Source: a virus
Length of the DNA stretch: 46,940 nucleotides
Virus record (IMG/VR): IMGVR_UViG_3300025117_001212
Direction: 5' to 3' (one strand)
Shown here: piece by piece, positions 791-46,625 of the stretch
How the letters are laid out: every line of letters begins with the position of its first letter
Position numbering within the stretch: position 1 is the first letter of the stretch
Notes under the pieces: generated by a model
Databases searched by the model: none
Seen by the model: the letters and a program-made list of their open reading frames with translations, nothing else
What the model was told of the DNA's origin: nothing
Translations under genes and position numbers: made by a program

Positions 791-1666
791 ATGAAGTTTG
801 AATTTTATATTCAAGGTCATGATATGCCTGATAATGAAAAACATAAGAGGTTAAGGCTCGGAGACATAGTTGCTGTTCGACCATATCCTTGGAATTGGGG
901 ATTGAAAGAGATTAAATATGGTTTGATTTTAATTGTAAATGTTCCATGGTCATTAAATCCAATGCCTGATTTCCAATCATTGACTAAAATCCAAATAGCA
1001 AGATTTTTAATCAAAACAAAGATTTGGTTTAGACTTAAGATTACACCAAGGGAAACTGTTGATGATGTTTTGGCTAGGTTTAACTCTATGCCATTAGCAA
1101 ATGCAAAGTCTTTAATAATTCAAGCATGGAAAGCCCATGAGCAAGATAAGCTAGATAGTTTTATCCAATCTAGGCTTTATGATAAAGGAATTCATAATAG
1201 TGAAATATTAGATATTGATCCTGGAGATCCTAATCTTTCATTGATGAAATCTATTTATCAAGATCCTGTGATTTGTACTAATTTAGATATGAATGAGGCT
1301 TCATTAGTTGATGGGAAGATTTGGCGTAATAGACCTGCTGTTTTGGCTAAACGTAAATTTAGATTACCAGTAGCAAGATTACTTAATCGTATTCCTGAAA
1401 TTGATATTGATAAAATACAAGATTCAAATTATATTTATCAACCTTTTAAATCTGCAAGTCAATTAATTCAAAAATTTGATGGTAGAAATAGTAATCATTC
1501 ATTATCAATTAATGAAGTTGATTGTTCTATTCCAGGAACAATAGATTCAGAAGAAATTATTGAATTTGATTGGATTAGAACTACGAATCCAATTCCTAAA
1601 GATAAATGGAATGATTCTGATGTTGATCCTGAAGAAAATCCTCCTCCTGCCTTAGATGTGGATTAG
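791..1666 (+). CDS. Hypothetical phage protein
   Basis: 291 aa ORF tightly packed between structural-like genes; no recognised motif. Confidence 0.6.
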   Translation: MKFEFYIQGHDMPDNEKHKRLRLGDIVAVRPYPWNWGLKEIKYGLILIVNVPWSLNPMPDFQSLTKIQIARFLIKTKIWFRLKITPRETVDDVLARFNSMPLANAKSLIIQAWKAHEQDKLDSFIQSRLYDKGIHNSEILDIDPGDPNLSLMKSIYQDPVICTNLDMNEASLVDGKIWRNRPAVLAKRKFRLPVARLLNRIPEIDIDKIQDSNYIYQPFKSASQLIQKFDGRNSNHSLSINEVDCSIPGTIDSEEIIEFDWIRTTNPIPKDKWNDSDVDPEENPPPALDVD

Positions 1667-1670
1667 ATAA

Positions 1671-3557
1671 ATGGCAAGTAGTAGACGATTACCATTAGCA
1701 TATAACGAAAGCACTTATGATAGTGCTGGTGGTAAAGACTATTCTGTACTATCGGTATGGGAGGGTGCTACTGATATCGATTTAGTTACCGCTGAAGCAG
1801 GTGAAATTTTAAATTGCTATGCGGGGGCACATGATGATTATGTCACTATCGATGGAGCCACTGTTAGTTCTTCATATTTTCGTGTTATTAGACCGGCAAG
1901 CGGAGAAGGTCATGTCGGTATTCCAAAATATGATGGGTCTGTAGTTGCCTTTGTATCTTCAGCCAGCACTGCACAATTATTTTATCTTGGCGAAAATTAT
2001 ATTGGTATTTATGATTTATGTTTGCAATTCAATAGAAGTTACGCTGGAACTACACGACATGTATATGCTCCCGCAGCAGGGGCATATTCGAAAACTGTTG
2101 GAGATCTAATATCAGGAGCTTCTAATGCTGATGCATCTGGGGTTTTGGTTGGTATTGATTTGCGAGGGGCTTATTGTGTTATTGCAAATAGTCTTGTTGC
2201 TAGAGTAAGTGGCGGAACCAGTATTACTTTATTCAGTTTAGCAAAAAATACAGGTGTTATTTATAATTGTACAGGTGTACAACCATCAAGTGCTGGATGG
2301 GGCATATATGCTTCTGAAGCTGGTACATTAGCTAAAAACTGTATCATAGTCAATGCTGCAATTCATGCTAATGTTACGCAAACTACATGTTTAACTAGTA
2401 ATCCCACCTATGTAGATTCCGATAATGATGATTTTCATTTATCATCGGAAGATACTATAGCAAAAGATCAAGGAACAGATTTAAGTGGAGATGGGGCTTT
2501 TGCTTTTGATGATGATATTGATGGTGAAACACGTAGTGGTACTTGGGATATAGGATTTGATGAATATATTGAACCTAGTTCTAGTTCTTCTAGTGAATCA
2601 AGTTCATCACAATCTAGTAGCTCTAGCTCTCAGTCTTCTAGTTCTTCAATTTCAAGTAGTAGTAGTTCTATAAGTTCTAGTGAATCTAGTAGTTCTAGTG
2701 AATCTAGTAGTAGTAAATCAAGTTCAAGTATTTCTTCTAGTAGTTCATTAGCTTCTTATATTGAAATTGAAGATATAGGAATTCAATCTTCTAGTTCAAG
2801 TATATCAAGTTCTAGTTCCCAATCAAGCTCTATATCTTCAAGTAGTTCTATTTCAAGTTCTTCTCAATCTAGTAGTTCTAGAAGTAGTTCTTCATCATCT
2901 CAAGAATCTAGTTCATCTAGTGAAAGTTCCTCTAGTTCAACTTCTAGTTCTTCCCAATCAAGTTCTTCACAATCTAGTAGTTCTAGTTCACAATCTTCTA
3001 GCTCCCAATCATCATCATCAACTTCAAGTAGTTCTAGTTCTACTTCTAGTTCTTCACAATCATCTTCTTCTACTTCTAGTAGTTCAAGCTCTAGTAGTTC
3101 ACAATCTAGTTCTTCGCAATCTTCTGAATCAAGTAGTTCACAATCATCATCTTCGCAACAATCTAGTTCATCTGCTTCATCAAGCTCTGAAGCGATGGAT
3201 ATGGATAGATATCCATCAACACCAATTCCTGTAGCCACATGGGAAGAAAGTTATGAATTTAAAACAAATATTCTTGAAGCTGTGAATGGTTCAGAACAGA
3301 GAGATAAAAAATGGAGTAATCCTAGAAGAAGATTTAAATTAAGATATCTGTATGAAGATGTTACTGACGGGTTGTGGTGGTTTGCTATTGGGCATAATGG
3401 TATTGCAGATAGTTTTATATTTGACCCACATGATTTTTTACCTACGCTATATGAATCAGAAGAAATCACAATGAGATTTGCTTCAGATGAAATAGGAAGA
3501 AGCATAGTTATAGATGGGATATATAACTTAGACATAGAATTGGTAGAGGTGAAGTAA
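1671..3557 (+). CDS. Tail protein: beta-helix-like N-domain, poly-Ser linker, DUF2460/distal-tail-like C-domain
   Basis: DDFHLSSED...WDIGFDEY motif, a ~200 aa Ser-rich tract, then FKTNILEAVNGSEQR..W..PRRRFKLRY typical of distal-tail-like domains. Confidence 0.65.
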   Translation: MASSRRLPLAYNESTYDSAGGKDYSVLSVWEGATDIDLVTAEAGEILNCYAGAHDDYVTIDGATVSSSYFRVIRPASGEGHVGIPKYDGSVVAFVSSASTAQLFYLGENYIGIYDLCLQFNRSYAGTTRHVYAPAAGAYSKTVGDLISGASNADASGVLVGIDLRGAYCVIANSLVARVSGGTSITLFSLAKNTGVIYNCTGVQPSSAGWGIYASEAGTLAKNCIIVNAAIHANVTQTTCLTSNPTYVDSDNDDFHLSSEDTIAKDQGTDLSGDGAFAFDDDIDGETRSGTWDIGFDEYIEPSSSSSSESSSSQSSSSSSQSSSSSISSSSSSISSSESSSSSESSSSKSSSSISSSSSLASYIEIEDIGIQSSSSSISSSSSQSSSISSSSSISSSSQSSSSRSSSSSSQESSSSSESSSSSTSSSSQSSSSQSSSSSSQSSSSQSSSSTSSSSSSTSSSSQSSSSTSSSSSSSSSQSSSSQSSESSSSQSSSSQQSSSSASSSSEAMDMDRYPSTPIPVATWEESYEFKTNILEAVNGSEQRDKKWSNPRRRFKLRYLYEDVTDGLWWFAIGHNGIADSFIFDPHDFLPTLYESEEITMRFASDEIGRSIVIDGIYNLDIELVEVK

Positions 3558-3585
3558 AATAGTTAAAGTAAAATATCATGATTTG

Positions 3586-3594
3586 TGGTATAAT
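3586..3594 (+). promoter_or_regulatory. Extended -10 promoter (TGnTATAAT)
   Basis: TGGTATAAT in an AT-rich intergenic gap upstream of GGAGG RBS and ATG 3637. Confidence 0.5.
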
Positions 3595-3636
3595 ATTATT
3601 AAGAATAATATTTTAATAATCATAACGGAGGACATA

Positions 3637-3957
3637 ATGAAAAAGGCAATCATCACCTTGGCAATCATTCTTTTCACTTCGACGGCATGGGCTGGACCTT
3701 TTCTGGTCTGCGACCCCTACCAGGCAGAAGTGGCCGTTACCCACTTTCAGATGAAGGACAATGGGGTGCCTGTTCAAGTCCCCTATGCCCTTCACACGGA
3801 CGGGTCGGCAATCGTGCTGGACCTTGGGCCGCTCGACAACGGCGCTCACCAGATAACCGATATCCAAGCGTGTAATGTCCGGGGGTGCTCGGAACCCCCT
3901 TTGGCATTCGCTGTACCCGGACTGCCCGGATCACCAAGTCTACGGATCGTGCCGTAA
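3637..3957 (+). CDS. Small secreted protein with signal peptide
   Basis: GGAGG RBS, then MKKAIITLAIILFTSTAWA-GPFLVCDP (AxA cleavage site); GC-rich. Confidence 0.7.
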   Translation: MKKAIITLAIILFTSTAWAGPFLVCDPYQAEVAVTHFQMKDNGVPVQVPYALHTDGSAIVLDLGPLDNGAHQITDIQACNVRGCSEPPLAFAVPGLPGSPSLRIVP

Positions 3958-4122
3958 TTGAGGAAGTGAAATGGAAATGCAAATAAGGGGGCATCATGCC
4001 TCATTGGTGTAAACATAGAATATTTTCAAAGCAAGTTGACGTAGATATTTTAGATGGGCCAGTCCCTTGTCATTGCAAATTTTGGCAAAGACTGTGGTTC
4101 ATTGTTACCAGGAGGTAGCATC

Positions 4123-4347: not shown

Positions 4348-4700
4348 TGGGTAACTACTCACTAGGCATTAAGCCCCTGCCGGACGTTGAAAACGGCCAC
4401 ACGTTCACGGGGGACAACTTCCTGCAACTTCTGCCCCATACCAAGATATTCGATGGGAAGGCGGGGTTGACGTTCGTGAGCTGTAATCTCACTAATTGTG
4501 ACATCCCTGCCGACTCTGTGTGTGTCATGTGCAGGCCCGTCCAACTCGGCTTTTGCTCCCATGTCCACCCGAACCTTGTTAAACGTGGGTTGCCGGAGTG
4601 CGCCGTCAACTGTGAGCATGTGGTCGATACCGACACCATTACCATTGATGGCGTGGTGGTCGATACCGTTTATCACTATGACGTAAAGGCGGTGGAATAA
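4347..4700 (+). CDS. Cys-rich hypothetical protein (GC-rich module)
   Basis: ATG overlaps the upstream stop; TAATG overlap with the next gene. Confidence 0.65.
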   Translation: MGNYSLGIKPLPDVENGHTFTGDNFLQLLPHTKIFDGKAGLTFVSCNLTNCDIPADSVCVMCRPVQLGFCSHVHPNLVKRGLPECAVNCEHVVDTDTITIDGVVVDTVYHYDVKAVE

Positions 4701-5725
4701 TGACAACGCGATATGTTGATCCGGCTGCAAGTGGGGATAACGACGGCACGAGCTGGACGAACGCTTACGAAACTCTTCAGCAGGCGGCTGACAACGCCGT
4801 CGCCGGGGATGTCGTTTATTGCCGTGGGACTGAGACGCTTGCGGCCAGGGTGGACTTTGACACCCAAACCGGCACCAACGCCGGGGGGTTCATCAAATTT
4901 GTCGGGTGTAATGCTGAGGGGAATGTTGACGGGACGCGGTTTGTGCTGGACGGGGACGGCGGGAATTATGCGGGGATTTACATTGTACCGGGGATAAGCA
5001 CCCTTTGGTTCGAGAACATCAGGGTGACGAATTGCGACGGGGGGAGTAGCGGGTTTGGTTTTCAAGCCACTGCTTGGAATGCAGGATATGGATGTGTGTT
5101 TATAAATTGTTGCTCCGATGGAAATTATTATGGGTTTCAAGGTGGTGCTAATTCGCTTGTTTTTAGGTCCGTTGCTTACTCAAATACGGTTTATGGGTTT
5201 AGTGTTCAAGGAATGATAAAGTTTATTTTTTGCGCCGCCAGGGATAATGGAGTTGGCTCTGGATGGAACTCCTCCGCAAATTGTATGCTTATCGCTTGCA
5301 TCGCTCACGGAAACGGTGAAGACGGAATAGGTCTTTCAGTAAATGGGTGTCTTTTTAATTGTGTAATAGATGGTAACATCGATGACGGAGTGGTTAGCCT
5401 AGCCTCTACTTCGGAAGGCGCCTTCTGGTCCCTCATCGGTTGTCGCATTACCAACCACTCAGGGGCCGGTGATATCGGCCTGAACGCCAACACCGAGGTC
5501 ACAGTGTCCGGTTATTGCTACTTCGAGGACAACGACGGCGACAACATCCAGAACGCCACGCTCCACCAGTTCATACCAATAGAGGGTGGTTCAACCACCT
5601 CCAACGAAGAGGACCAGGCCGACACAACCGAGGGCTATACCAGCACGACAGGCGGCTCTGAAGACTTCAACCTCCGCTCCGACGCCACATTACGCCGGAC
5701 GGCAATCACCATCCCGTGGAGCTAG
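4700..5725 (+). CDS. Pectin-lyase-like right-handed beta-helix protein (tail spike/fibre-like)
   Basis: YVDPAASGDNDGTSWTNAYETLQQA N-terminal motif, Asn/Gly beta-helix repeats, EDFNLRS cap. Confidence 0.7.
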   Translation: MTTRYVDPAASGDNDGTSWTNAYETLQQAADNAVAGDVVYCRGTETLAARVDFDTQTGTNAGGFIKFVGCNAEGNVDGTRFVLDGDGGNYAGIYIVPGISTLWFENIRVTNCDGGSSGFGFQATAWNAGYGCVFINCCSDGNYYGFQGGANSLVFRSVAYSNTVYGFSVQGMIKFIFCAARDNGVGSGWNSSANCMLIACIAHGNGEDGIGLSVNGCLFNCVIDGNIDDGVVSLASTSEGAFWSLIGCRITNHSGAGDIGLNANTEVTVSGYCYFEDNDGDNIQNATLHQFIPIEGGSTTSNEEDQADTTEGYTSTTGGSEDFNLRSDATLRRTAITIPWS

Positions 5726-5733
5726 GGGTTTAG

Positions 5734-7152
5734 ATGGCATCGAACGAATATCAGATTTCAGCCGGCCTAGTCCCGATTGACAACTCCACGGGGGCGACCA
5801 GTAACGCCTATTACATTGCGGCGGGGCTGGTGCCGGGGGATACGGAGGCGGGCGGGGAATCAAGTAGTTCTAGTGAATCTAGTTTATCCGAATCTAGCTC
5901 GTCTAGTACATCTAGTTCTTCTCAATCTAGTAGTTCTAGTAGCTCACAATCTAGTTCTTCTAGTGAATCTAGTAGTAGTAAGTCAAGTTCTTCTCAATCT
6001 AGTAGCTCTAGTGAATCTAGTTCATCACAATCATCTAGTTCATCTAGTGAAAGTAGTAGTTCACAATCATCTAGTTCTAGTGAAAGTAGTAGTTCACAAT
6101 CATCTAGTTCTAGTGAGAGTAGTTCATCACAATCTAGTTCATCTAGTGAGAGTAGTAGTTCACAATCATCTAGTTCTAGTGAAAGTAGTAGTTCACAATC
6201 ATCTAGTTCTAGTGAGAGTAGTTCATCACAATCTAGTTCATCTAGTGAGAGTAGTTCATCACAATCTAGTTCTTCTAGTGAGTCTAGTTCATCTAGTGAA
6301 TCTAGTAGTAGTGAGTCAAGTTCATCTAGTGAATCTAGTAGTAGTGAGTCAAGTTCATCTAGTGAATCTAGTAGTAGTGAGTCAAGTTCATCTAGTGAAT
6401 CTAGTTCATCACAATCTAGTTCTTCTAGTGAGAGTAGTTTATTACATCTCAGTTCGTCTTCATCAAGTGAATCGTTAAGCTCTTCAAGCAAATCAAGCAG
6501 TTCTAGTACGTCAAGTTCATCACAGTCTAGTAGTTCTAGTGAAAGTAGTAGTTCTAGTAAATCTAGTTCTTCGCAATCAAGTAGTTCTTCTACTTCTAGT
6601 TCATCACAATCATCTAGTTCTAGTGAATCTAGTTCTTCACAATCGAGTTCATCTAGTGAATCTAGTTCATCACAATCAAGTTCTAGTACTTCTAGTTCAT
6701 CACAATCTAGTTCTTCTAGCGAATCGAGTAGCTCACAATCGAGTAGCAGTTCGATTTCTAGTAGTTCACAATCATCTAGTTCTAGTGAATCAAGTTCATC
6801 ACAATCTAGTTCTTCTAGCGAATCGAGTTCTTCACAATCATCTAGTTCTAGTGAAAGTAGTAGTTCACAATCATCTAGTTCTAGTGAAAGTAGTTCATCT
6901 AGCACTTCAAGTTCTTCACAATCAAGTAGTTCAAGCGAATCATTTCATCCACTATCAAGTTCAAGTAGTTCTCAATCAAGTTCTTCTATCCAAAGTAGCT
7001 CTTCACAGTCAAGCAGTTCTACAGTTTTTACAGATCTATCAGATCCATCTATTGTTTTCAAAGTTGATAAATTAATAACAAATTTCAAAGTTGATAAATT
7101 AATAACAAATTTCAAAGTTGATAAATTAATAACAAACTTTAAAGTTTCTTAA
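5734..7152 (+). CDS. Poly-serine protein (~390 aa Ser-rich tract) with a C-terminal 9-aa repeat
   Basis: SSSES/SSSQS repeats with mixed TCN/AGY codons; ends in (FKVDKLITN)x3. Confidence 0.7.
   Translation: MASNEYQISAGLVPIDNSTGATSNAYYIAAGLVPGDTEAGGESSSSSESSLSESSSSSTSSSSQSSSSSSSQSSSSSESSSSKSSSSQSSSSSESSSSQSSSSSSESSSSQSSSSSESSSSQSSSSSESSSSQSSSSSESSSSQSSSSSESSSSQSSSSSESSSSQSSSSSESSSSQSSSSSESSSSSESSSSESSSSSESSSSESSSSSESSSSESSSSSESSSSQSSSSSESSLLHLSSSSSSESLSSSSKSSSSSTSSSSQSSSSSESSSSSKSSSSQSSSSSTSSSSQSSSSSESSSSQSSSSSESSSSQSSSSTSSSSQSSSSSESSSSQSSSSSISSSSQSSSSSESSSSQSSSSSESSSSQSSSSSESSSSQSSSSSESSSSSTSSSSQSSSSSESFHPLSSSSSSQSSSSIQSSSSQSSSSTVFTDLSDPSIVFKVDKLITNFKVDKLITNFKVDKLITNFKVS
7057..7146 (+). repeat. 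27-nt tandem repeat, three copies plus a partial copy
   Basis: ttcaaagttgataaattaataacaaat units at 7057, 7084, 7111. Confidence 0.9.
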
Positions 7153-14089: not shown

Positions 14090-14959
14090 ATGATAGAATT
14101 TAATAAAATAGTTATTAAAGAATTATTTAGTAATATTTTCGAACATGGGGCATGGACTATTTTTGTTGATGAAAAATATAAAACATGTGACGATGGCGAG
14201 TCCATTCTTGTGAATAATAAAATTTCACTATGTACAACTGTTATGAACCGAAGTGATGATTTAATTAGGTCATTGCCACAAAACATAGAGGATAATAAGG
14301 ATTATCCTAACCTAGAGTTTTTGATATTAGATTATAATAGCTCTAGTAATGAATTAATTAAGCTAATTAATTTTTTATCACAACCATTATATTTAGAATT
14401 AATAAACGAAGGTAGATTAATATTTTATAGGACTGAAGAACCTAGTCATTATAGTATGTCTCATTCGCGGAATATTGCTTTTAAGCAGGCCAAGGGTGAT
14501 ATCGTAGTGAATGTAGATGCTGATAACTTAACTAATAAAGGATTTGCGTCAAAAATAAATCAATTGGCAAATGCTAAACCAGAAATGGCCATTTTTGCAA
14601 AAGGTAAAAGAATGTTAAGAGGCAGACTTGGATTCTATAAAAAAGAATTTATAGAATTACTTGGGGGGTACAACGAAGACTTCATTGGTTATGGTGTAGA
14701 TGATAGAGATATCATGTGCAGAGCTTTTGGGTTAGGATTTACAGCCATGTGTTTTGGAGGTAAATATTTTGGAATAGTAGAGCAAATAATTAAAGAAAAT
14801 AAGACTATAAATATGATTAATCAAAATTGGAAGTATACAGAAAAATTGAACAAAATTATTTCATTTTTTAATTTAGCTTATGGTCTTTATAAAGCTAACA
14901 TAAATAGAAAATGGGGAGTTGTTAATGATCTTAAATCATTTTGGGAATTGGAATTATAA
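14090..14959 (+). CDS. GT2/GT7-like glycosyltransferase whose 3' third is a recoded allele associated with the TnpB cassette
   Basis: ISLCTTVMNR, SRNIAF, VNVDADN, GGYNEDFIGYGVDDRD. Confidence 0.85.
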   Translation: MIEFNKIVIKELFSNIFEHGAWTIFVDEKYKTCDDGESILVNNKISLCTTVMNRSDDLIRSLPQNIEDNKDYPNLEFLILDYNSSSNELIKLINFLSQPLYLELINEGRLIFYRTEEPSHYSMSHSRNIAFKQAKGDIVVNVDADNLTNKGFASKINQLANAKPEMAIFAKGKRMLRGRLGFYKKEFIELLGGYNEDFIGYGVDDRDIMCRAFGLGFTAMCFGGKYFGIVEQIIKENKTINMINQNWKYTEKLNKIISFFNLAYGLYKANINRKWGVVNDLKSFWELEL

Positions 14960-16243
14960 TGTTTTTTAAATCTATAACATATAGAATCTATCCTACTAAA
15001 TCTCAAGAACAGATGTTTAATCAATTCTGTGGTAATAATAGATTTGTTTGGAATCACTTCTTGATGAGAAATATTAAACATCATTTTGTTAGTGGTAAGT
15101 TTATCTTTGGATATGATATGTGTAAGGAGTTAACTAAATTAAAAGAAGAATATGAATGGTTAAAATTATCACCAGCACAATCGCTCCAACAGCAATGTTT
15201 GAATCTTGATAAAGCTATCAAGAATTGTTATAAATCTGAATTTGGATTTCCTAAGTTTAAAAAGAAAGGTAAATCTAAAGAAAGTTTTAAAATAGTTCAA
15301 AGATTTTGGTTTTCTAAATCAAGAAAATCCATAAGAATACCTAAAATTGGATTCATTAGAATTAAGCCTAAAATCAATATTAATTTAAAAGATATCAAGA
15401 ATGTAACCATCAAAAAGATCAATAATCATTGGTATCTTTCTATATGTCATCAATTCAATATCTTTAGAACCCCAATGACTGGGAAAAGAGTTGGATTAGA
15501 TTTAGGAACTGTTAGGTTAGCAACTCTCAGTAATGGTAAAGTGATTGATAAGTTTGAAGACAAAGAATTAGTAAAAAAATTTAAATCAACTCAAAGAAAA
15601 CTAGAAAGGAGAACTAGAAGAAATCGTAAGTATAGAATGAAAAAAATTCAATCTATTAGTCGTGCAAAAACCAAGCAATCACTATCTAGATTGAATAAGA
15701 AACTTAGAGACAAGAGAAAAGATTACTTAGATAAAGTTTCTAAGAAGTTAGTGAAACGATATGACGTGATCTGTATTGAAGACTTGAAAATATCCAATAT
15801 GACTAGACAAGTAAGAGAAAATGAAGATGGATCTCCAAGAAAAAGTGTTAGTGCCAAATCAGGATTGAATAGAGAAATACTCAATCAATCTTGGGGTCAA
15901 CTGATAAACATGTTAGATTATAAATCTAAGTGGTTCAATAAGAGTATGATTAAAGTAGATCCCCATCACACATCACAAAGATGTAGTGAATGTGGATTCA
16001 CTCACAAGAGAAATAGGAGATCACAATCAGAATTTAAGTGCTTAAAGTGTGGTTATGAGCTAAATGCAGATCACAATGCTGCAAAGAATATCAAAAGATT
16101 AGGTATTAGGCAATGGAAAAAAGGCAGCGTAGAATTAAAAAGGTTTGGACGTAACCATGTGGAGGACTCACAGAGTCTAATGAAGCTAGAAAGTTCTATC
16201 TTAGATGGTAGATGCCTTAGAAGTAATTCTAAGGAAACGTCAT
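14693..16243 (+). mobile_element. TnpB cassette 1 (recoded gene end, tnpB, omega-RNA); no tnpA
   Basis: Bounded by a diverged duplication of the glycosyltransferase 3' end starting at 14693 and at 16244. Confidence 0.7.
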
Positions 16244-16251
16244 GGAGCTGA
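14959..16251 (+). CDS. tnpB: TnpB RNA-guided endonuclease (IS200/IS605 family), copy 1
   Basis: YRIYPT N-terminus, GLDLG, IEDL, CSECG..CLKCG zinc finger, NADHNAA; ATG overlaps the upstream TAA; ORF reads through the omega-RNA. Confidence 0.95.
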   Translation: MFFKSITYRIYPTKSQEQMFNQFCGNNRFVWNHFLMRNIKHHFVSGKFIFGYDMCKELTKLKEEYEWLKLSPAQSLQQQCLNLDKAIKNCYKSEFGFPKFKKKGKSKESFKIVQRFWFSKSRKSIRIPKIGFIRIKPKININLKDIKNVTIKKINNHWYLSICHQFNIFRTPMTGKRVGLDLGTVRLATLSNGKVIDKFEDKELVKKFKSTQRKLERRTRRNRKYRMKKIQSISRAKTKQSLSRLNKKLRDKRKDYLDKVSKKLVKRYDVICIEDLKISNMTRQVRENEDGSPRKSVSAKSGLNREILNQSWGQLINMLDYKSKWFNKSMIKVDPHHTSQRCSECGFTHKRNRRSQSEFKCLKCGYELNADHNAAKNIKRLGIRQWKKGSVELKRFGRNHVEDSQSLMKLESSILDGRCLRSNSKETSWS

Positions 16252-16263
16252 TGATAGAGACAT
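16120..16263 (+). ncRNA. TnpB omega-RNA (scaffold to 16243, guide about 16244-16263)
   Basis: ~105 nt block conserved in all three copies, ending GAAACGTCAT, with several hairpins; conservation stops abruptly after it; 5' end approximate. Confidence 0.8.
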
Positions 16264-16501
16264 TCTTAATAGGGCATTTGGACTTGGATTTACGGCTATG
16301 TGTTTTGGTAAGAAATACATAAATGTGGTTACTGAAAAACAAAGTAAAACTATAAATATGATAAACAAGAATTGGCGTTATACTGAAAAATTGAATAAAG
16401 TCATTTCTTTCTTTAATCTTTTGTATGGAATCTATAGAGCTAATGAAAATAGAGAATGGGGAGAGGCACCCCTTATATCATTCAAGGATGTTTCTGTATG
16501 A
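16205..16501 (+). pseudogene. Displaced original 3' end of the glycosyltransferase, still an open frame from an ATG inside the omega-RNA
   Basis: GADDRDILNRAFGLGFTAMCFG... aligns with the last ~88 aa of 14090..14959; its TGA overlaps the next ATG. Confidence 0.8.
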
Positions 16502-17199
16502 AGAACCTTATAGTCGCAAATATGAGTAATACTTGGAGATATTGTCCAGAACATATTTCACTATTAATTAATGCTCAAATTGAAAATTCTCTTGAACTTG
16601 GATGGCTACCAGAAGATATAATTCTTATTGCTAATTTTGATCATGAATTCATGGGCGTTAAGGCTCATAATACTGAACTTAATAAAACTTGTTTGACTGG
16701 TAGTAAAATGTTTGCAGTCAAATGGTTCTATGATAATGTTTCTATAGACACAATATGGGCGCATGATTTAGATGCTTGGCAGAATTGGCCTTTTAAAGAA
16801 CCTGAATTTAAAGATGTCGGGGTATGTTGTTACAGTAGACCTAAGTTCAATGGGGGAAGTGTCTTTTGGAAAAGTAGTGCGAAAGATATTGTTAGTGATA
16901 TTGTAAATAATATCCTTAGTGGTGAACAGAGAAAAGAAGAACCAACCCTTAATAGATTATTGAAATCAAAGTATAAAGATAGAGTTACTGTTCTTAACAA
17001 TACATATAATGTGGGATGCAGTGGGTTTATTCCAAGATTTCAAAGAAGCGAAAAGCCTATCAAGGTTTGCCATTTTCACCCTTACAAGCGAAGAGCTTGG
17101 AGGGCTTTCATGACTCCAATTGTAGATAATTCAATAGCTGGTTCAATAAGATTAGAAAGATTACTTAGGAAGTATTATAGTAAATTTATTACGGGGTAA
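16498..17199 (+). CDS. Putative glycosyltransferase (GT-A-like)
   Basis: WAHDLDAW DxD-like motif, FNGGSVFW, LNNTYN, HFHP; position in the glycosylation cluster. Confidence 0.6.
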   Translation: MKNLIVANMSNTWRYCPEHISLLINAQIENSLELGWLPEDIILIANFDHEFMGVKAHNTELNKTCLTGSKMFAVKWFYDNVSIDTIWAHDLDAWQNWPFKEPEFKDVGVCCYSRPKFNGGSVFWKSSAKDIVSDIVNNILSGEQRKEEPTLNRLLKSKYKDRVTVLNNTYNVGCSGFIPRFQRSEKPIKVCHFHPYKRRAWRAFMTPIVDNSIAGSIRLERLLRKYYSKFITG

Positions 17200-17549: not shown

Positions 17550-18659
17550 GTGATGATAAGCACCATAACTTTACTTGAAAATCAAGAGATCTGGTTGAAT
17601 GAATATGCTGAATCAGATCCTGTACAATTGTCATATTTCGCCCCTGGTGGGAATATGGCATTGGATGTAGTTATTACAGGAATTGGTCATATTAAGATTG
17701 ATAGATATATTGCTGATTCTTCTGATGGTACATTTTTCACTGATTCTTCATGGGGAGTAGTTACTGCGTCTCAGTCAGCAGGACATAAAAGGCATACTGT
17801 AGCGATTGATCCTGTTAGTGAATTTATTAAATTCAGATTTACTGAAATAAGTGGGGTTCTTTCTAGTTCTAGTTCGCAATCAAGCAGTTCACAATCAAGC
17901 AGTTCTTCAGCTAGTAGTGAATCTAGTTCTAGTAGTTCTTCACAATCTAGCAGTTCTTCTGTTAGCAGTGGTTCTAGTGCTAGTAGTTCTAGTGAATCTA
18001 GCAGTTCTTCAGCTAGTAGTGGTTCAAGTGCTAGTAGTTCTTCTACTTCTAGCTCTTCTAGTAGTGAATCTAGCTCTAGTTCTCAAGAGAGTTCAAGTTC
18101 TAGCACTTCTAGTTCTTCTAGCAGTGAATCTAGTTCCAGTTCCTCGCAATCTAGTAGTTCTCAAGAATCTAGTAGTTCTAGTGAATCTAGCAGTTCTGAA
18201 GCTTATTTTAAATCTAGTAGTTCTAGTTCTTCAACTTCATCCTTGAGCTCTTCACATTCTAGTGAATCTAGTTCAAGTAGCTCTACATCATCGATATCAA
18301 GTTCTAGTGAATCGTTATCTAGTGAAAGCAGTTCTTCAAGTTCGACGTCAAGCAGCTCTAGCTCTGAAGAATCAAGCTCTAGTTCACAATCGTCTAGTTC
18401 CGAGGAATCAAGCTCTAGTTCCAGTCAATCTAGTTCAAGCAGTTCTGGATCTAGTTGGTCATCTAGTTCTGAATCTTCTAGCTCTAGTGCTTCTAGTGAA
18501 TCTAGTTCAAGCATTTCTAGTTCTAGTACATCTAGTTCTTCGAGTTCCCAGTCGAGTGAGTCTAGTACTTCTTCTAGTTCTCAATCTTCAAGTTCCTCAA
18601 CCAGTAGCGAAGCACCTTCTGCGGTAAGTGTTACTGCGAAGTTGATTATCATGGGGTAG
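17550..18659 (+). CDS. Poly-serine virion-like protein
   Basis: GGAGG RBS; ~250 aa Ser tract inserted before the last beta-strand-like segment (AVSVTAKLIIMG). Confidence 0.7.
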   Translation: MMISTITLLENQEIWLNEYAESDPVQLSYFAPGGNMALDVVITGIGHIKIDRYIADSSDGTFFTDSSWGVVTASQSAGHKRHTVAIDPVSEFIKFRFTEISGVLSSSSSQSSSSQSSSSSASSESSSSSSSQSSSSSVSSGSSASSSSESSSSSASSGSSASSSSTSSSSSSESSSSSQESSSSSTSSSSSSESSSSSSQSSSSQESSSSSESSSSEAYFKSSSSSSSTSSLSSSHSSESSSSSSTSSISSSSESLSSESSSSSSTSSSSSSEESSSSSQSSSSEESSSSSSQSSSSSSGSSWSSSSESSSSSASSESSSSISSSSTSSSSSSQSSESSTSSSSQSSSSSTSSEAPSAVSVTAKLIIMG

Positions 18660-29308: not shown

Positions 29309-30112
29309 TTAAATGTTAATGGATTTTCTAAATGGATTATCTGTAGCCCAATCTTTATTCAATCTTTCAACAAACATCTTATATAGAACTTCAAAATTTA
29401 TGTCAAGGTTCGCCTCCTTTCTATAGTCATTCACTAGCTGATTTGTAACTTCAACTAGAGATTCTATATTAGAAAATTGAGTCACAATAATATTGTAGGC
29501 AGTGTCTATTATCTGACCAAACTGTGTGTTTCCAAGTTTTACTTCTGTTAATGCGTAAATCAATATTTCAAACTTGTCAACACCAGAAACAAGTAATCCT
29601 TCTTCACTGCCATCTTTTGAAGACTTCCATAGATTTATATAGTATTGCTTGATATTCTCTGGAAGCCCTTCAAACACTTCTTGCTCTACGCATTTAATAG
29701 CAATTGTTTTGAATAATGCTGATACCTGATCAGATCCATGTTTAACTGGAAACAAAATGTCGCCAGTTACACTTTCTTCTATATCATGGATAAGGGCTCT
29801 TTTAATAACTTCTGATGTATCATATCTTTTTAATTTACTATTTTCAAGATCAGCAAACAACATTGCATAGAGGGCAGTATAGAATGAATGTTCAGAAACT
29901 GGATATTTTCCAATATGCGGAGTATTTGAACATCTGTCTATGCTGCATAATCTGCGTGCCCTGAACACAAAATCTGATATATGACGTTTCTCTAATTCTT
30001 TGGAGTTAGAGCATCTACCATTTAAGGTAGAACTTTCTAGTTTCAACGGACTCAATGAGTCCTCCACATGGTTGCGCCCCAACCTTTTTTCACCTAAGCT
30101 GCTTTTTTCCAT
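29309..30112 (-). CDS. HD-domain 5'-deoxynucleotidase (YfbR-like) with a 44-aa N-terminal extension encoded by TnpB omega-RNA
   Basis: VSEHSF, ALIHDIEESVTGDI, DKFE; the first 44 codons are the omega-RNA scaffold. Confidence 0.85.
   Translation of the reverse strand: MEKSSLGEKRLGRNHVEDSLSPLKLESSTLNGRCSNSKELEKRHISDFVFRARRLCSIDRCSNTPHIGKYPVSEHSFYTALYAMLFADLENSKLKRYDTSEVIKRALIHDIEESVTGDILFPVKHGSDQVSALFKTIAIKCVEQEVFEGLPENIKQYYINLWKSSKDGSEEGLLVSGVDKFEILIYALTEVKLGNTQFGQIIDTAYNIIVTQFSNIESLVEVTNQLVNDYRKEANLDINFEVLYKMFVERLNKDWATDNPFRKSINI
29961..30110 (-). ncRNA. TnpB omega-RNA copy 2 (scaffold ends 29981; guide about 29980-29961)
   Basis: Same conserved block ending GAAACGTCAT. Confidence 0.8.
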
Positions 30113-31269
30113 TATCTGATTCCCTTCTTTTTGATATTTATAGCAGCATTATGATCTGCATTTAATTCATATCCACACTTCAAACATCTGAACTCACTTT
30201 GAGATCTCCTATTTCTCTTATGAATGAAACCGCATTTACTACATTTCCTAGAAGTATTCTCAGGATTTACCCTAATCACCTTTTTGTTAAACCAAGAACT
30301 CTTATACTCTAATATTGAAATCAGTTGTCCCCAAGACTGATTCAGTATTTCCCTATTGAGCCCTGATTTAGCACTGACACCACTTCTATGAGATCCATCA
30401 TCAGTTTTATTTACTTGTCTAGTCATATTCTTGATCTTTAAGTCTTCAATGTAGATCATATCATACTTCTTTACTAACTTCTTAGAAACTTTATCTAAGT
30501 AATCTTTTCTCTTGTCTCTAAGTTTCTTATTCAATCTAGATAGTGATTGCTTGGTTTTTGCACGACTAATAGATTGAATCTTTTTCATTTTATGTTTTTT
30601 ATTTTTTCTAGTCCTCCTTTCTAGTTTTCTCTGTGTTGATTTAATCTTTTTCAGTAACTCTTCATCTTCAAATTTATCAATCACTTTTCCATTAGAAAGA
30701 GTTGCTAATCTTACTGTTCCTAAATCTAACCCGACTTTTCTACCTGACATTGGAGTTCTAAATATACTGAATTGATGACAGATATAAAGACACCAATTGT
30801 TCCCTTGCTTTTTAATGGTTACATTTTTAATATCTTTAAGATTAATATTAATTCTAGGTTTGATTCTAATAAATCCAATTTTAGGAATCTTAATTGATTT
30901 TTTAGATTTAGATATTTTAATGTTTTGATTAACCCTAAAACTTTCTTTAGATTTTCTTTTCTTTTTAAACTTAGGAAATCCAAATTCTGATTTGAAGCAA
31001 TTTTTTAGTGCTTTATCTAGATCTAAGCATTGTTGTTGAAGTGGTTGGCTAGGAGATAGTTTTAGCCATTCATATCCTTTATACTGTTTTAATCTAGTTA
31101 ACTCTTTACACATATCATACCCAAACAGGAACTTACCACTAACAAAATGATGTTTAATGTTTCTCATTAAGAAGTGATTCCATGTAAATCTATTATTACC
31201 ACAAAACTGATTAAACATCTGTTCTTGCGATTTAGTAGGATAGATTTTATATGTAAAAGATTTTATCAT
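30112..31269 (-). CDS. tnpB: TnpB RNA-guided endonuclease, copy 2
   Basis: GLDLG, IEDL, zinc finger, NADHNAA; close paralogue of copy 1. Confidence 0.95.
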   Translation of the reverse strand: MIKSFTYKIYPTKSQEQMFNQFCGNNRFTWNHFLMRNIKHHFVSGKFLFGYDMCKELTRLKQYKGYEWLKLSPSQPLQQQCLDLDKALKNCFKSEFGFPKFKKKRKSKESFRVNQNIKISKSKKSIKIPKIGFIRIKPRININLKDIKNVTIKKQGNNWCLYICHQFSIFRTPMSGRKVGLDLGTVRLATLSNGKVIDKFEDEELLKKIKSTQRKLERRTRKNKKHKMKKIQSISRAKTKQSLSRLNKKLRDKRKDYLDKVSKKLVKKYDMIYIEDLKIKNMTRQVNKTDDGSHRSGVSAKSGLNREILNQSWGQLISILEYKSSWFNKKVIRVNPENTSRKCSKCGFIHKRNRRSQSEFRCLKCGYELNADHNAAINIKKKGIR

Positions 31270-31823: not shown

Positions 31824-32023
31824 TCTATAACTCTTAATTGTGAGTAATGCCAAATTATTTCTCTTCCATCATCTATGCAATTAAGGAGTAAATGGCCAGT
31901 AAAAGGAATATATATATCTTTAACTATGAATTTTTTACCAACATCTTGTGGAGTATTGGTATATTTAATAGGAGTTAATATTGTTCCTGGTTTATATTTC
32001 TTTCTTATTGTATATAGATTCAC
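31820..32023 (-). CDS. Small protein of the MNxYT.RKKY..G family
   Basis: MNLYTIRKKYKPGT; ATGA overlap. Confidence 0.65.
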   Translation of the reverse strand: MNLYTIRKKYKPGTILTPIKYTNTPQDVGKKFIVKDIYIPFTGHLLLNCIDDGREIIWHYSQLRVIE

Positions 32024-32974
32024 TTCAATACCTTAATGTATGCTTCTGGTTCATTACCTAAAGCAATTTGCGGTTCATTCATCCTAGACATTGATTTGAA
32101 CCCAGATATTTTAAGTGGCATATCTACTTTAATAGTTATATCCTTTTTATCTAATTTAGCAATCATATCAGACCATAAAACAATATTATACGTATCCCCA
32201 ATATTGGATAGATTTAAGATAGCCATCTTTCCACGCTTAGAATTAATATATCTAACTGATGAAACAATTCCAGCAACTACTATACGTTGACCAGTTCTAG
32301 CCAATGAAAATTTTTCATACGGTATTACACCTTTGAGTTGATCAGGGAATAGTTCTTCTACTGATTGTTTAAAATAAGGCATAACCTTACTCGCTTCAAA
32401 ATCCCATTGTTTTTTCTTTAGTGGTTCAAATGTTTCATTGATTTTATGAAGTTTATAGAATCTTTTTATTAACTTATTTCGCTTACTAAATTCATTAAGA
32501 GAATTAGTTGTTATCAACAATCTAAATATTTTGACGTTCACAATTCTTTTATTAACAGTTTCATAAATATGTTTGAAAGAGTCATATGGTTGATGTTTTA
32601 CTATTTCGTTAGCTGCACTAATTCCTATTCCTTTAATACTTGTGAAAGGCCAAACTATTTCATCATCATTGATGGAAAAATTGACCTTAGATAAGTTTAT
32701 ATCTGGCATGTGGTACTTTATACCATAGTATTTTTCTGAAACAGCCTTGATGCCTTCATACTCGTCATCAGTTGCTTGTGATAATAATGAACAGAAAAAC
32801 TCTAATGGATATTTAACCTTAAGATATTGTGTCGCATTAGCGACTAATGCATAAGAAGTCGCATGAGCTTTCCTTACATTACGGGAAACAATATTGTCCG
32901 AACGCATGAAGCTCAGACCATATTGTTTCCGCTGCCCTCCTTGCTTTATCTTTTGATTTAAAATGCTTTTTCAT
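32020..32974 (-). CDS. dnaE: DNA polymerase III alpha, C-terminal part, interrupted by a 10-nt gap (32872-32881)
   Basis: 32974..32882 encodes MKKHFKSKDKARRAAETIWSELHAFGQYCFP; 32871..32020 continues KAHATSYA..YLKVKYPLEFF, PDINLS, IKGIG (HhH) and an OB fold. Confidence 0.85.
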
Positions 32975-33004
32975 TATTTATCCATTATGGTATTAATGTT
33001 TGTT

Positions 33005-33187
33005 TTATAATATTTCTCCTTTAAGGATAATTTGCCGTAATTTTTCCCCATCAGGAGAAATTATAACCCCAGTCCCATTACAATCGGTACATTTAGCGTC
33101 ATCATCTTCGTCGTATCGTGATTTTATTCCTGAACCTCCACACACTTGACATGTCATTGTCATTTCTTGGATTAGTTCATCAATCAT
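33005..33187 (-). CDS. DnaJ-type zinc-finger protein resembling anti-TRAP
   Basis: CQVCGGSG...CTDCNGTGVIISPDGEKL. Confidence 0.6.
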   Translation of the reverse strand: MIDELIQEMTMTCQVCGGSGIKSRYDEDDDAKCTDCNGTGVIISPDGEKLRQIILKGEIL

Positions 33188-33380
33188 AAAAGTGCCCTTC
33201 TGTTTCATCTCTCCATTCAACTTCTCTTTCAACTTCATCATATAATTCTTCATATTTATCTTCAAACCAATCTTGATTTAGTAAATATTTAAGATAACCG
33301 GATTCTACTTCTTGGACTAGTTTCCCTTTATGTTTGCCGAAATAGAAACGATATTTCTTTTCAGTAAATTGTGTTGGCAT
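33180..33380 (-). CDS. DUF3820-like small protein
   Basis: FYFGKHKGKLVQEVESGYLKYL. Confidence 0.65.
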   Translation of the reverse strand: MPTQFTEKKYRFYFGKHKGKLVQEVESGYLKYLLNQDWFEDKYEELYDEVEREVEWRDETEGHFYD

Positions 33381-33382
33381 GA

Positions 33383-33595
33383 TTACGCCTTTTTCTTTTT
33401 ACTTTGTTTAGATTCAACCTTAAGAATTTTTGTTACAGTAATGACAAAATCACTAAAAACGGCTGGTTTTCCACGATTGTTATACCCACTATAAGTTTTA
33501 ACATTCATAACCCGAGCCGTTCCACCTTGATAATCAAAAGATTCGCCGTTATAAAATAGTTCAAACAATTCTTCATATGTATATTTTGTTCCCAT
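33383..33595 (-). CDS. Hypothetical protein
   Basis: Packed small ORF in the dnaE gap. Confidence 0.5.
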   Translation of the reverse strand: MGTKYTYEELFELFYNGESFDYQGGTARVMNVKTYSGYNNRGKPAVFSDFVITVTKILKVESKQSKKKKA

Positions 33596-33599
33596 ATTT

Positions 33600-33863
33600 T
33601 CACCACTTCATTTTCTTTGCGAGTTTTCTAATTCTGTTAGACATTGCCATTGCTTCTTTCTTATTAAATCTCACCCTTTGAACTGCTAGACTAAAATCTA
33701 TATGAATCATATTATCCATAAGATAAATATTATGTTGGACAGTCCGGAATGGCAGATCTGATGGTGTAGGTTCTTGCTTTTTCTTTAAATCAGCCTCATA
33801 AAATTCTTGAAGTTGTTTTTTCAGTTCTGGTGTTATTGCCGGCTCTTGTGATTCGCTGCTCAT
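33600..33863 (-). CDS. Hypothetical protein
   Basis: AGGAG RBS. Confidence 0.55.
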   Translation of the reverse strand: MSSESQEPAITPELKKQLQEFYEADLKKKQEPTPSDLPFRTVQHNIYLMDNMIHIDFSLAVQRVRFNKKEAMAMSNRIRKLAKKMKW

Positions 33864-33873
33864 GATTCTCCTT

Positions 33874-34194
33874 TTATGTTGAAAGAGTTAATTTAAATGA
33901 AATTCCTCTACGATAACGGTAGTCATCAGTAATGGTGATTGTTAATGTTTTTATCTTGTAGTCATTTAGATTTAAACTACTCCATTTGGTAAATTCTTCA
34001 AGATTTGTGGAACATTTTTCTGATGTTATTACTATTACACCTTCGAGTGATATTTCATTATAACCAAAATTTTCTTGCATCATAACAGCATCAAGTCTGA
34101 ACATTATTGCAAAATTATCATATGTTGTTGGTAAATTTTCTTTAAAATGTTTGATTAAATAATTTTCAAATTTAGTTAGATTATATTTATTCAT
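33874..34194 (-). CDS. Hypothetical protein
   Basis: 106 aa ORF. Confidence 0.5.
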   Translation of the reverse strand: MNKYNLTKFENYLIKHFKENLPTTYDNFAIMFRLDAVMMQENFGYNEISLEGVIVITSEKCSTNLEEFTKWSSLNLNDYKIKTLTITITDDYRYRRGISFKLTLST

Positions 34195-34360
34195 CGATTA
34201 ATATTTTCTCTTGCGGTTCCTCATGATGCTTACCACGGCCTACCGGATTTTCAGGATGCTTCTTGTTCCAAATCTTTGCAGCGGTCTCTTTAGCTTCTTC
34301 ATCAGATTTGCCTTCTTTTTTCAATTTATCTCTAATTTTAACGTATCCTTCTGGTGGCAT
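34187..34360 (-). CDS. Small basic protein not in the ORF track (MPPEGYVKIRDKLKKEGKSDEEAK...)
   Basis: AGGAG RBS before ATG 34360; 57 codons filling the gap between neighbours. Confidence 0.5.
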   Translation of the reverse strand: MPPEGYVKIRDKLKKEGKSDEEAKETAAKIWNKKHPENPVGRGKHHEEPQEKILIDE

Positions 34361-34362
34361 GA

Positions 34363-34740
34363 TTATTCTCCTTCTAGTTTTCTATTTTTAGTCTTGTTTT
34401 TACTTTTTTCAAACCATTGATATCTACACCTTGCACAAGTAAAATAAAATCCATATATTTCAGGAATATCATCTTTTGATGTATCATCATATTCAACTTT
34501 AATATCATAATTTTCTTGCACTTCATTATAATACGGAGGAGGATTTTTAACTATTAAAGGTTTTTTACATGCTGGACAACTATTGTACCTTGATATAACA
34601 ACATCATTATCTTTATTACTTAATCCAAAAGGATTAGATGATTGGGATTCTAATTCTTTACCAGTGTCAATATCTAGTGTAAATGGATTTTTAACTTGTG
34701 GTCCAAATGTAACTCTTCCTACTGTTTCTTTTTTATCCAT
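34363..34740 (-). CDS. Zinc-ribbon protein
   Basis: CPAC...CARC. Confidence 0.55.
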   Translation of the reverse strand: MDKKETVGRVTFGPQVKNPFTLDIDTGKELESQSSNPFGLSNKDNDVVISRYNSCPACKKPLIVKNPPPYYNEVQENYDIKVEYDDTSKDDIPEIYGFYFTCARCRYQWFEKSKNKTKNRKLEGE

Positions 34741-34958
34741 TTATCGTGCTCCTTAATTTTGTTCCAATATAATTGTCTTTCTTCTTCAGAAGAATCTATG
34801 CATGAAGTTTTAAATACACGATAATCCTTGTAATTGGTGGTTCTAACAATAAATGTGCTATCATATGCAACATTAATATCGGGCATATTAGATACCAACG
34901 AAACTAATCCAAGCCTCTTATGTTTAAATACTTTCCCTATTTGACTTTCTTTGTCCAT
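34719..34958 (-). CDS. Hypothetical protein
   Basis: 79 aa ORF overlapping the dnaE-N stop. Confidence 0.5.
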   Translation of the reverse strand: MDKESQIGKVFKHKRLGLVSLVSNMPDINVAYDSTFIVRTTNYKDYRVFKTSCIDSSEEERQLYWNKIKEHDKWIKKKQ

Positions 34959-40013: not shown

Positions 40014-40628
40014 TCACATTAAAATTGCTGTTATTGTAGTTAATTCATTGATTACAGGATACTCATATTCAATTCCTAATTTTTCCATAGTTGCATACAC
40101 ATCAATCCCAATAGCTTCTAATGATGGAAGGCCATTTCTGCGGCATGGTGGATGATCGCGATTAGGGCATCTTATTCCGCATTTATCACAATGACCCTGA
40201 AGCAAAGCAAACACATTCTTATTAAGCTGTTTTAGTTCACGTTTATATCTTACCATTAATTGACATGTTTCTCTTGATTGACCCATTTCACATCCTTTGA
40301 GCTGCCTACCTTTCCTTACTTTAAAGTCTATATGTGATAGATCTTTTTTGTTAATTTTCCAACTTTTAGTTCCATCATTTTTCCATATGAATAATATGCA
40401 GTGATCAAAGCTATTTACGAAATTCATTGATAATTCAAGAGTTTCAAATTGAGGATAAGTAAGTTTAAGATATGATGGACATAAGATAAATCTTCCCACT
40501 CCGCCGCATGTGTAACATTTCAACCTAGCGATTAAATCAAAAATTAATTCATCAGGTTTGATAATTTTATATTCAGAAAAGATTTCTGGTTTAGGCAATT
40601 TGTTTAATATCTTTATTAATTTTTTCAT
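40014..40628 (-). CDS. DUF2284-like metal-binding protein
   Basis: RLKC..C....CP, GHCDKC..C....C, PSLEAIGIDVYAT. Confidence 0.75.
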   Translation of the reverse strand: MKKLIKILNKLPKPEIFSEYKIIKPDELIFDLIARLKCYTCGGVGRFILCPSYLKLTYPQFETLELSMNFVNSFDHCILFIWKNDGTKSWKINKKDLSHIDFKVRKGRQLKGCEMGQSRETCQLMVRYKRELKQLNKNVFALLQGHCDKCGIRCPNRDHPPCRRNGLPSLEAIGIDVYATMEKLGIEYEYPVINELTTITAILM

Positions 40629-41497
40629 TTTAATCCTACGATATGTTTATATCTAAACCATGAACCAAAATTTTTATAAACAACCTTAAATGATACTCCT
40701 GTTAATTTGGTAAATTCTATTTGGGTCATAAGTTCGTTATGTGTTTCGGCTAATTCTCTACCTACTTTAACTAAACTTTTCTTAGTATGTTTCTTTGGTT
40801 TTTTTATTATTTGTGTTTTCCATTTTAATTTTTCAGCTTCAGATTTTTCTCTATGCAGATTCATTCTTTTCATAAGTCTCGTAACAACTACCTTAGTTAG
40901 ATTAAGATTTTTAGCAATTTGCCTTGATGATAGTCCTTGGTGATGCATATTGTAAATTTTTTTGTAATATAAGTCATATTTAATTTTATTATTTTTTGTC
41001 CAACGCACTGGATCTTTAGTTTTTTGCCCATTTGATTTTTTATTCGAACATAATCCCATTCGCCCTGCGTGTTCCATATTTTCTTTATGAGTCACATATT
41101 CCAAATTTTTAATATTATTGTTTGTTTTAATCCCATCAATATGATTTACTTCTTTATTGTTCGGGCATGGACCTAAAAAAGCATGGGCTACTAATCTGGC
41201 AGTACGTATCCATATTTTATTTTTACATAAACTTAGTTTAGTGTTTAAATATCCAGAGGTAGATATCCTTTGATTAGCTAATTTACCAGGCCAATTATCT
41301 GTTTTATCATCATATATTAGCCCTCTAATTCTAGCTAGATTTGATACTTCATAATCAGGAAATTCTATTAGTTTATTCTTAACCATTACAGCACATGGTT
41401 TCCAAATTTCGCCAGGCAGGGTTCCACAATGTGGTTGCCTTTTTAATTGATATTTTCTAGACATTATCTCAAAATTTACCTTCTGGATAATAGTCAC
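40625..41497 (-). CDS. Free-standing NUMOD4/HNH homing endonuclease
   Basis: EIWKP..YEVSNLARIR, RLVAHAFL, VNHIDGIKTNN..NLEYVT..EN..H, C-terminal HTH and FGSW repeat. Confidence 0.9.
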   Translation of the reverse strand: MTIIQKVNFEIMSRKYQLKRQPHCGTLPGEIWKPCAVMVKNKLIEFPDYEVSNLARIRGLIYDDKTDNWPGKLANQRISTSGYLNTKLSLCKNKIWIRTARLVAHAFLGPCPNNKEVNHIDGIKTNNNIKNLEYVTHKENMEHAGRMGLCSNKKSNGQKTKDPVRWTKNNKIKYDLYYKKIYNMHHQGLSSRQIAKNLNLTKVVVTRLMKRMNLHREKSEAEKLKWKTQIIKKPKKHTKKSLVKVGRELAETHNELMTQIEFTKLTGVSFKVVYKNFGSWFRYKHIVGLK

Positions 41498-45249: not shown

Positions 45250-45505
45250 TTAAGGTATCTCCTCTCGGGTTACGGTATCCTCGACAAACTGCGTCTCACG
45301 TCTTAACGATAAGAACCCATGATTCCTATCCCACAGAGCTCCAAACTGGATAAATTCGGAGGTGTTTAGTGAGAACAGGTAGCTGGACAAACTCACCTGC
45401 ATACTCGGCTTAACAACCAGCTTAGTCTCGAAGTCAATCATTGTATGCTACGACTCCTTGAATGAATCTAAAAACGAATGTTGACTTGCTACTTCTAAAA
45501 ATGTG
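45250..45505 (-). ncRNA. IscB omega-RNA (guide about 45505-45486; scaffold from GTCAAC at 45485)
   Basis: GC-richer block upstream of iscB; AAGTCAACATT pairs with AATGATTGACTT, followed by AGACTAAG, as in IscB omega-RNA 5' stems. Confidence 0.7.
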
Positions 45506-46503: not shown

Positions 46504-46625
46504 CTCTTCTTTTTACTAATTTCATGACGTTTCCTCTAAGAGGCATCTACCATCTAAGGTAGAACTTTCTAGCTTCAACGGACTCTGTGAGTCCTCCACA
46601 TGGTTGCGTCCCAACCTTTTTGATT
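46504..46625 (-). ncRNA. TnpB omega-RNA copy 3 (scaffold ends 46524; guide about 46523-46504)
   Basis: Same conserved block ending GAAACGTCAT. Confidence 0.8.

Follow-up and report, generated by a model that had tools for sequence, protein, structure and literature searches.

Splicing is what normally makes a homing nuclease tolerable within a conserved gene. The closest described systems in layout are the fungal mobile ORFs (mORFs) of Allomyces macrogynus atp6 and of Glomus atp6, atp9, cox2 and nad3, in which a gene with a foreign C-terminus is followed by an endonuclease gene and by the orphaned native C-terminus (PMC3630166). For TnpB, drive without excision has been described in plasmids (PMC11870625). 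A 2026 review divides homing into intron, intronless and transposon homing, and the portions of it available to us do not mention a TnpB that carries a gene tail (PMC13565253); the same holds for the available portions of PMC10691335, PMC10055350, PMC10690162 and 10.64898/2026.02.14.705889. In the literature searched, which included few subscription papers and no supplements, where such loci may be listed, no description of a TnpB with the layout reported below was found.

The locus lies in a stretch of 46,940 nucleotides (the window; IMG/VR record IMGVR_UViG_3300025117_001212) that is part of a 140-kb contig from an uncultured phage, found in groundwater and soil runs. We propose, with a probability of roughly 0.6, that a unit of this window, cassette 1, is a transposase-less IS605-type tnpB/omega-RNA element that acts as an RNA-guided home-and-rescue system, much as the fungal mobile ORFs do. 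The window encodes phage-type replication and recombination genes, namely dnaE, thyA and RecA-, RuvC- and SbcCD-like genes. The domains of DNA polymerase III alpha are divided between two ORFs, separated by about 2 kb in which small genes lie (32020-37669, minus strand). A free-standing NUMOD4-HNH nuclease gene (40625-41497, minus strand) is a further homing-type element, and an IscB gene (RRXRR plus HNH; 44077-45449, minus strand) lies behind a cupin gene, with about 190 nt of non-coding DNA upstream; the putative IscB guide has no duplicate within the window. A promoter scan stayed at chance level (15 vs 20.9), and no RNA run is among the listed runs containing the contig.

Cassette 1 is laid out on the plus strand as follows. 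An intact glycosyltransferase (GT) gene is followed by tnpB and its omega-RNA and then by an orphaned second copy of the last 85 codons of the GT gene; that is, the arrangement is of the mORF type, with a duplicate tail on the intact upstream gene and an orphan tail after the nuclease. The GT gene (14090-14959) lies inside a sugar/methyl-transferase cluster and encodes a GT2-like protein of 289 residues, of which only the N-terminal half was matched in a search of solved structures. We take its GxDD motif to be catalytic. Three proteins with long poly-serine tracts (1671-3557, 5734-7152 and 17550-18659, plus strand) flank the GT cluster and are likely glycosylation substrates. The last 88 codons of the GT gene (14693-14959), the resident tail, are likely foreign; their stop codon overlaps the tnpB start as TAATG, with no left-end sequence between. 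The tnpB frame (14959-16251, 430 residues) crosses the omega-RNA scaffold, or right end (16137-16243), and stops inside the predicted guide (16244-16263), which consists of the first 20 nt of the orphan tail. The orphan tail (16244-16501), likely the native one, has 85 open codons, contains the AAGGA of the next gene (16484-16488) and overlaps its ATG. That next gene (16498-17199) encodes a protein of 233 residues with no Pfam or NCBIfam match and would form part of the right homology arm. As the initial annotation had noted, the homology of the two tails starts at the end of the omega-RNA, at 16244 and 14693, and there is no similarity 5′ of the junctions.

TnpB1, the product of the cassette 1 tnpB, has HTH, OrfB_IS605 and TNB domains and matches the TnpB family NF040570 with 286 bits (cut-off 100). 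The RuvC residues D181, E274 and D371 (D-E-D) and the four zinc-finger cysteines are intact. The tail of ISDra2 TnpB is dispensable (PMC10097598), and the frame of TnpB1 likewise runs through the scaffold. No left end with a subterminal hairpin after the TAM was found; ahead of tnpB codon 2-3, cassettes 1 and 2 have no sequence in common, and an omega-RNA profile run on the window matched only the three right ends. No Y1 transposase TnpA was found in the 52 of the 87 listed window ORFs that were scanned. Rfam detected no group I intron and the end motif lacks the final G, so the features of an IStron are absent.

The three omega-RNAs of the window align through GAAACGTCAT and diverge immediately afterwards. 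Because all three copies diverge right after this sequence, the guide of cassette 1 starts at 16244, where the initial annotation had set it. In the last hairpin, the letters differ among the three copies while the pairing is kept, i.e., the two arms covary. The RNA is conserved and structured, lies at the right end and finishes in a TCAN-type motif, here TCAT (16240-16243), all of which are features of omega-RNAs; single-sequence folds give z-scores of only -1.6 to -2.2, and Rfam returned no match. The resident tail is preceded by TTAT (14689-14692), which lies on Gly-Tyr codons at the homologous junction and is a plausible TAM for cassette 1, in keeping with the earlier proposal. TTAT accounts for 1% of the 4-mers of the window and is one base away from the end motif TCAT. 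It is the TAM of ISDge10 (PMC12908284), and in ISGst elements the TAM and the end motif differ little (10.1101/2023.03.14.532601). Among the best 120 of 261 GT homologues, its codons specify Tyr in all 120 and Gly in 91. The assignment rests on one site, since cassette 2 has no TTAT between its promoter and its tnpB start. Within the window, no TTAT-flanked match to guide 2 or guide 3 occurs.

The two tails align by blastn with 165/231 nt (E 5e-28). Their peptides are identical at 57 of 85 residues, which is the two-thirds first estimated by eye, and at 54 of 73 residues in the core; the synonymous changes seen by the initial annotation are present as well, with different codons at 22 of these 54 identical residues. 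A dN/dS comparison gave a pS of 0.76, so that synonymous sites are saturated, and a dN of 0.21. It points to purifying selection and gives no support to recoding: the two tails are old working alleles and not, given this divergence, a decayed local duplicate. The guide and its resident counterpart (14693-14712) differ at positions 3, 5, 6 and 18, as reading the two 20-mers confirms. These four mismatches are fewer than the tail mean of 5.8 per 20, and 42% of the 67 20-mers in the tail alignment have four or fewer. The initial annotation described the mismatches as mostly TAM-proximal; the letters are right, but at least three mismatches in the first six nt occur in 28% of the 71 in-frame windows of the tail alignment, and the seed bias of cassette 1 is no more than chance. 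The description of the resident tail as a recoded replacement, the product of a design, is not supported at this locus, since synonymous sites between these old alleles are saturated and the tails differ less within the guide window than they do on average.

For ISDra2 TnpB, TAM-proximal double mismatches abolish cutting (PMC10097598). If TnpB1 behaves likewise, the resident site, with its four mismatches, is predicted to be immune. Given this sensitivity, and because 84% of 69 windows of the tail alignment have at least two mismatches in the first twelve positions, nearly any foreign tail is predicted to be immune. Immunity at this locus would then be a by-product of an old divergence between alleles, which a survival filter has preserved, rather than engineered recoding. 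Guide positions 4-6 correspond to the x of GxDD, a variable codon with 10 residue types in 120 proteins (the best 120 of 261). Since only 7 of the 119 other GT homologues listed among these have the Ala of the guide and synonymous sites are saturated, the target range would be narrow.

Which of the two tails is native can be judged from an uninterrupted GT homologue, P0002, known as protein sequence only. It contains GYGADDRD and is one such gene in a list of 119 further homologues, from the best 120 of 261. P0002 agrees with the downstream tail at 84% of 73 columns, against 71% for the resident tail; its tree distance is 0.22 to the orphan tail versus 0.45 to the resident tail, with a grouping support of 0.76. 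P0002 and the orphan tail share the GADDRD motif and a 2-residue gap, and their ends fall within one residue of each other. Because P0002 is closer to the downstream tail, that tail is likely native, which backs the earlier reading of the ATGA overlap with the next gene (16498-16501), itself real, as the native end. In a full HMMER search with the orphan tail, nothing apart from itself was closer than 53%. In an mORF-type cassette, the foreign piece would begin at the insertion point; within the GT gene, the signal for such a breakpoint is mixed. Residues 141-201 are native-like, being 85% identical to P0002 (10 of 23 native-like and 85 of 90 foreign-like pairs are as low), and residues 44-140 are foreign-like, with 62.5% identity (none of the 23 native-like pairs is so low); the comparison pairs are non-independent. 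Either gene may be a mosaic.

Two sister cassettes occur in the window. Cassette 2 (29309-31269, minus strand; tnpB 30112-31269, omega-RNA 29981-30089) sits at the start of a YfbR-like HD gene. An ATG that overlaps the stop of the cassette 2 tnpB (TAATG) opens 44 codons through the omega-RNA into the YfbR-like gene. Among 59 other matches to this gene product, 55 have 8-17 residues ahead of the aligned Arg, two have 20 and 24, and in the remaining two no Arg is aligned; the window keeps 8 after the junction, with no Met. The scaffold frame is open in all three omega-RNA copies and is in phase only with the 20-nt hairpin of cassette 2 (the others are 18 and 9 nt), an outcome expected one time in three by chance. 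As a mirror of cassette 1, cassette 2 thus apparently restores the start of a gene, and its omega-RNA would also be coding. Cassette 3 (46524-46940, minus strand) is cut by the end of the window, beyond which its upstream side lies, and its guide can be read in frame as an 8-codon gene end; a fourth omega-RNA, with another guide, is seen at a loose end. The tnpB copies are mosaic (14965-16243, 29981-31266 and 46524-46940), with a 100% identical 60-nt block amid about 80% identity, and the first 50 nt of cassette 3 in the window are those of cassette 2. Recombination among tnpB copies is therefore common. In run X11, a low-depth contig joins cassette-2-type letters to the end of cassette 1, by gene conversion or as an assembly chimera.

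Two related contigs, L177 and L196, were reached through a weak match to the omega-RNA profile, and their TnpBs fall in one clade with those of the window (SH-aLRT 96 in a quick tree of 41 rows). In the first locus of L177, L177-A, TnpB is 45% identical to that of the window, and a second copy of the 44 codons that follow the end of the omega-RNA lies in front of tnpB, starting behind TAC (L177:4-138 and 1625-1758, plus strand). The repeats are identical at 126 of 134 nt, and five of the eight differences lie at guide positions 8-12. The corresponding p of 2e-4 is overstated, since adjacent bases were counted as independent and one base past the stop was included; the five seed differences sit side by side and may go back to two events, and 3 nt of the contig precede the repeat. 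Selection on the seed is nonetheless indicated most clearly by this relative and not by the window locus. A hairpin resembling that of the right end lies directly after the upstream stop of L177-A. At L177-B, the first 9 guide bases are repeated upstream after TTAT and are followed by a hairpin (L177:4800-4860 and 6151-6200, plus strand), presumably of the left-end type, and the gene end is supplied by this left-end-like sequence. The arrangement suggests that two alleles with insertions at different TAMs crossed over to produce it. L196 (827-1363, plus strand) has an omega-RNA ending in TCAT and then a startless frame of 178 codons; its upstream side is outside the contig.

Such tail duplications are rare in this sample, with two clear cases, the window and L177-A, among 190 distinct tnpB ends (of 248 found). 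In earlier screens of 194 loci and of 122 loci in 73 TnpB clusters, the window was the only clear case; both missed L177-A for its short flank, so the rate of this layout is a lower bound. L080 and L223 proved to be paralogous genes, L102 and L138 were rejected by eye as end hairpins, and L112-116, L140-142 and L221 are multi-segment repeats. At L026, a 40-residue similarity (z 6.5) links an upstream gene end to the frame after the omega-RNA (3365-3976 and about 5237-5366, plus strand); its motif recurs in neighbouring paralogues, and the case is weak, if possible. L256 (about 4501-4536, minus strand) has a stand-alone omega-RNA of this type, without tnpB, which is flanked by two phage genes and overlaps the start called for a 352-residue ORF.

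A GT allele lacking tnpB is represented by P0002 as protein; as DNA, no uninterrupted allele was found. GT relatives in viral contigs gave 13 stretches, none of them confirmed, and the DNA of the orphan tail had no match in 50,697 phage records. The predicted empty-site motif gave only matches with three mismatches, at 5 of 256 loci. A scan with the right-end motif returned 14 viral stretches, none with tnpB, the scaffold motif matched twice in GTDB, and further viral motif scans gave 1, 0, 0 and 0 matches. A metagenome scan covering 11 of 64 parts did not recover the close TnpB family. No joint across cassette 1 was present in the contigs of four runs, nor one across cassette 2 in those of four others; because contigs drop rare variants, this is not evidence of absence. 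A joint of 14659 to 16341 was set aside, as it rests on 23 letters.

We suggest that cassette 1 arose and acts as follows. An IS605-type element would have inserted after TTAT, just before GxDD, whereupon the severed native tail became the guide. Recombination with a diverged allele would then have restored a full upstream gene and removed the left end, possibly when an allele with the insertion within the gene crossed over with another that carried it behind the stop codon. Because its left end is lost, the cassette should no longer be excisable, and tnpB would be translated by TAATG coupling. TnpB is predicted to cut TTAT followed by native-type sequence in the uninterrupted alleles of co-infecting phages and to spare the resident site. 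The break would be repaired from the cassette allele by the recombination proteins of the phage (RecA-, RuvC- and SbcCD-like), with the orphan tail serving as both guide and right homology arm, and the cassette would spread in this way. The locus had been classed as cleave-and-rescue; home-and-rescue fits instead, because the cassette is located at its own target. To our knowledge, Cleave-and-Rescue (ClvR) does not copy itself.

The alternative that survives best, though we consider it unlikely, is that the locus is an inert recombination scar, in which an IS605 insertion was repaired by a diverged allele and the cassette merely persists, with its targets absent or its nuclease idle. The origin step is common to both accounts, so they differ only in present activity. 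The scar fits the failure to see an empty allele as DNA, the lack of targeted seed recoding and the mosaic tnpB copies, a sign that recombination among copies is common. It also fits the orphan tail, from which a Gly found in 91% of homologues is missing and part of which would be retained anyway, because it carries the ribosome-binding site of the next gene. Against an idle nuclease stand the catalytic residues, intact in all six close TnpB copies aligned, the scaffold hairpins, retained across tnpB/omega-RNA copies about 20% apart in DNA, and L177, where the same layout recurs with seed-clustered differences. Less probable again is a domesticated weapon of phage against phage, with a TnpB that cuts and excludes rival alleles while the cassette is not copied. 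An immobilised cassette without a left end, coupled to a phage gene, would suit that role, and marker exclusion by free-standing phage nucleases is described (PMC13565253; PMC2988022); however, the guide is the cassette's own flank with homology arms on both sides of the cut, which is homing geometry, and the at least four copies with unrelated flank guides look like selfish spread. A downstream tail maintained for its protein product, be it a 98-residue polypeptide or an alternative C-terminus giving enzyme variation, is the least probable alternative: the 85 codons are open from an in-frame ATG at 16205, but this ATG is a conserved scaffold triplet in all three copies with no evident ribosome-binding site, the conserved Gly is gone, and the intron and final G of an IStron are missing. 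The frame itself (16205-16501), pointed out by the initial annotation, is real and its expression doubtful; the translational coupling ascribed to it is weak for the same reasons of scaffold origin and ribosome binding and because the next gene is preceded by an AAGGA of its own, at a distance of 9 nt.

Home-and-rescue thus remains the preferred reading of cassette 1. Its extension to the whole phage clade of these TnpBs is more tentative, at somewhat under even odds: a natural home-and-rescue drive, in which each cassette would invade a gene and restore it with a spare tail (cassette 1 and L177-A) or with a new start whose frame crosses the omega-RNA (cassette 2), and in which self-cutting would select seed-escape versions, would replace the intron as a homing nuclease's means of residing in conserved genes. 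If true, DNA-level rescue, in which the native tail left behind automatically serves as the guide, would add a third way for a conserved gene to tolerate a homing nuclease, and would be the natural equivalent of engineered home-and-rescue drives. The retention of transposase-less tnpB copies by lytic-type phages would also become easier to explain, as would the swapping of gene tails between phage alleles. Because the guide, the TAM candidate and the site predicted to be immune can all be read from each such locus, the proposal is directly testable.

Compared with known systems, cassette 1 shares with the IS200/IS605 TnpBs of ISDra2, ISGst2 and ISDge10 the TnpB family, an omega-RNA at the right end, a guide taken from the flank and a T-rich TAM similar to the end motif. 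It differs from them in that no left end or tnpA was found and in lying inside a phage gene with the tail of a second allele upstream; in addition, it keeps the resident TAM, and protection is predicted to come from seed mismatch. Like the free-standing Seg and Mob homing endonucleases of T4, it is a promoterless cassette with UAAUG-type coupling (as in mobE) whose own copy would be spared by sequence differences (PMC2988022; PMC13565253). In contrast, the T4 enzymes cut far from their genes and are protein-guided, and the portions of PMC2988022 available to us describe no duplicated gene end. IStrons, which combine TnpB with a group I intron, likewise make a TnpB element harmless inside a gene (PMC10690162), but they do so by splicing, whereas cassette 1 has no intron and would be rescued at the DNA level. 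The engineered HomeR and Cleave-and-Rescue systems pair an RNA-guided nuclease with an uncleavable version of the target gene (PMC7968924, PMC6442612); these are eukaryotic constructs, and the difference at cassette 1 is natural divergence. The nearest counterparts are the fungal mORFs, which have the same layout (PMC3630166). Their nucleases are LAGLIDADG or GIY-YIG enzymes with specificity encoded in the protein, whereas in cassette 1 the nuclease is a TnpB, RNA-guided, and the orphan tail is itself the guide. Judged by its layout, cassette 1 would work like a mobile ORF without being a member of that group.
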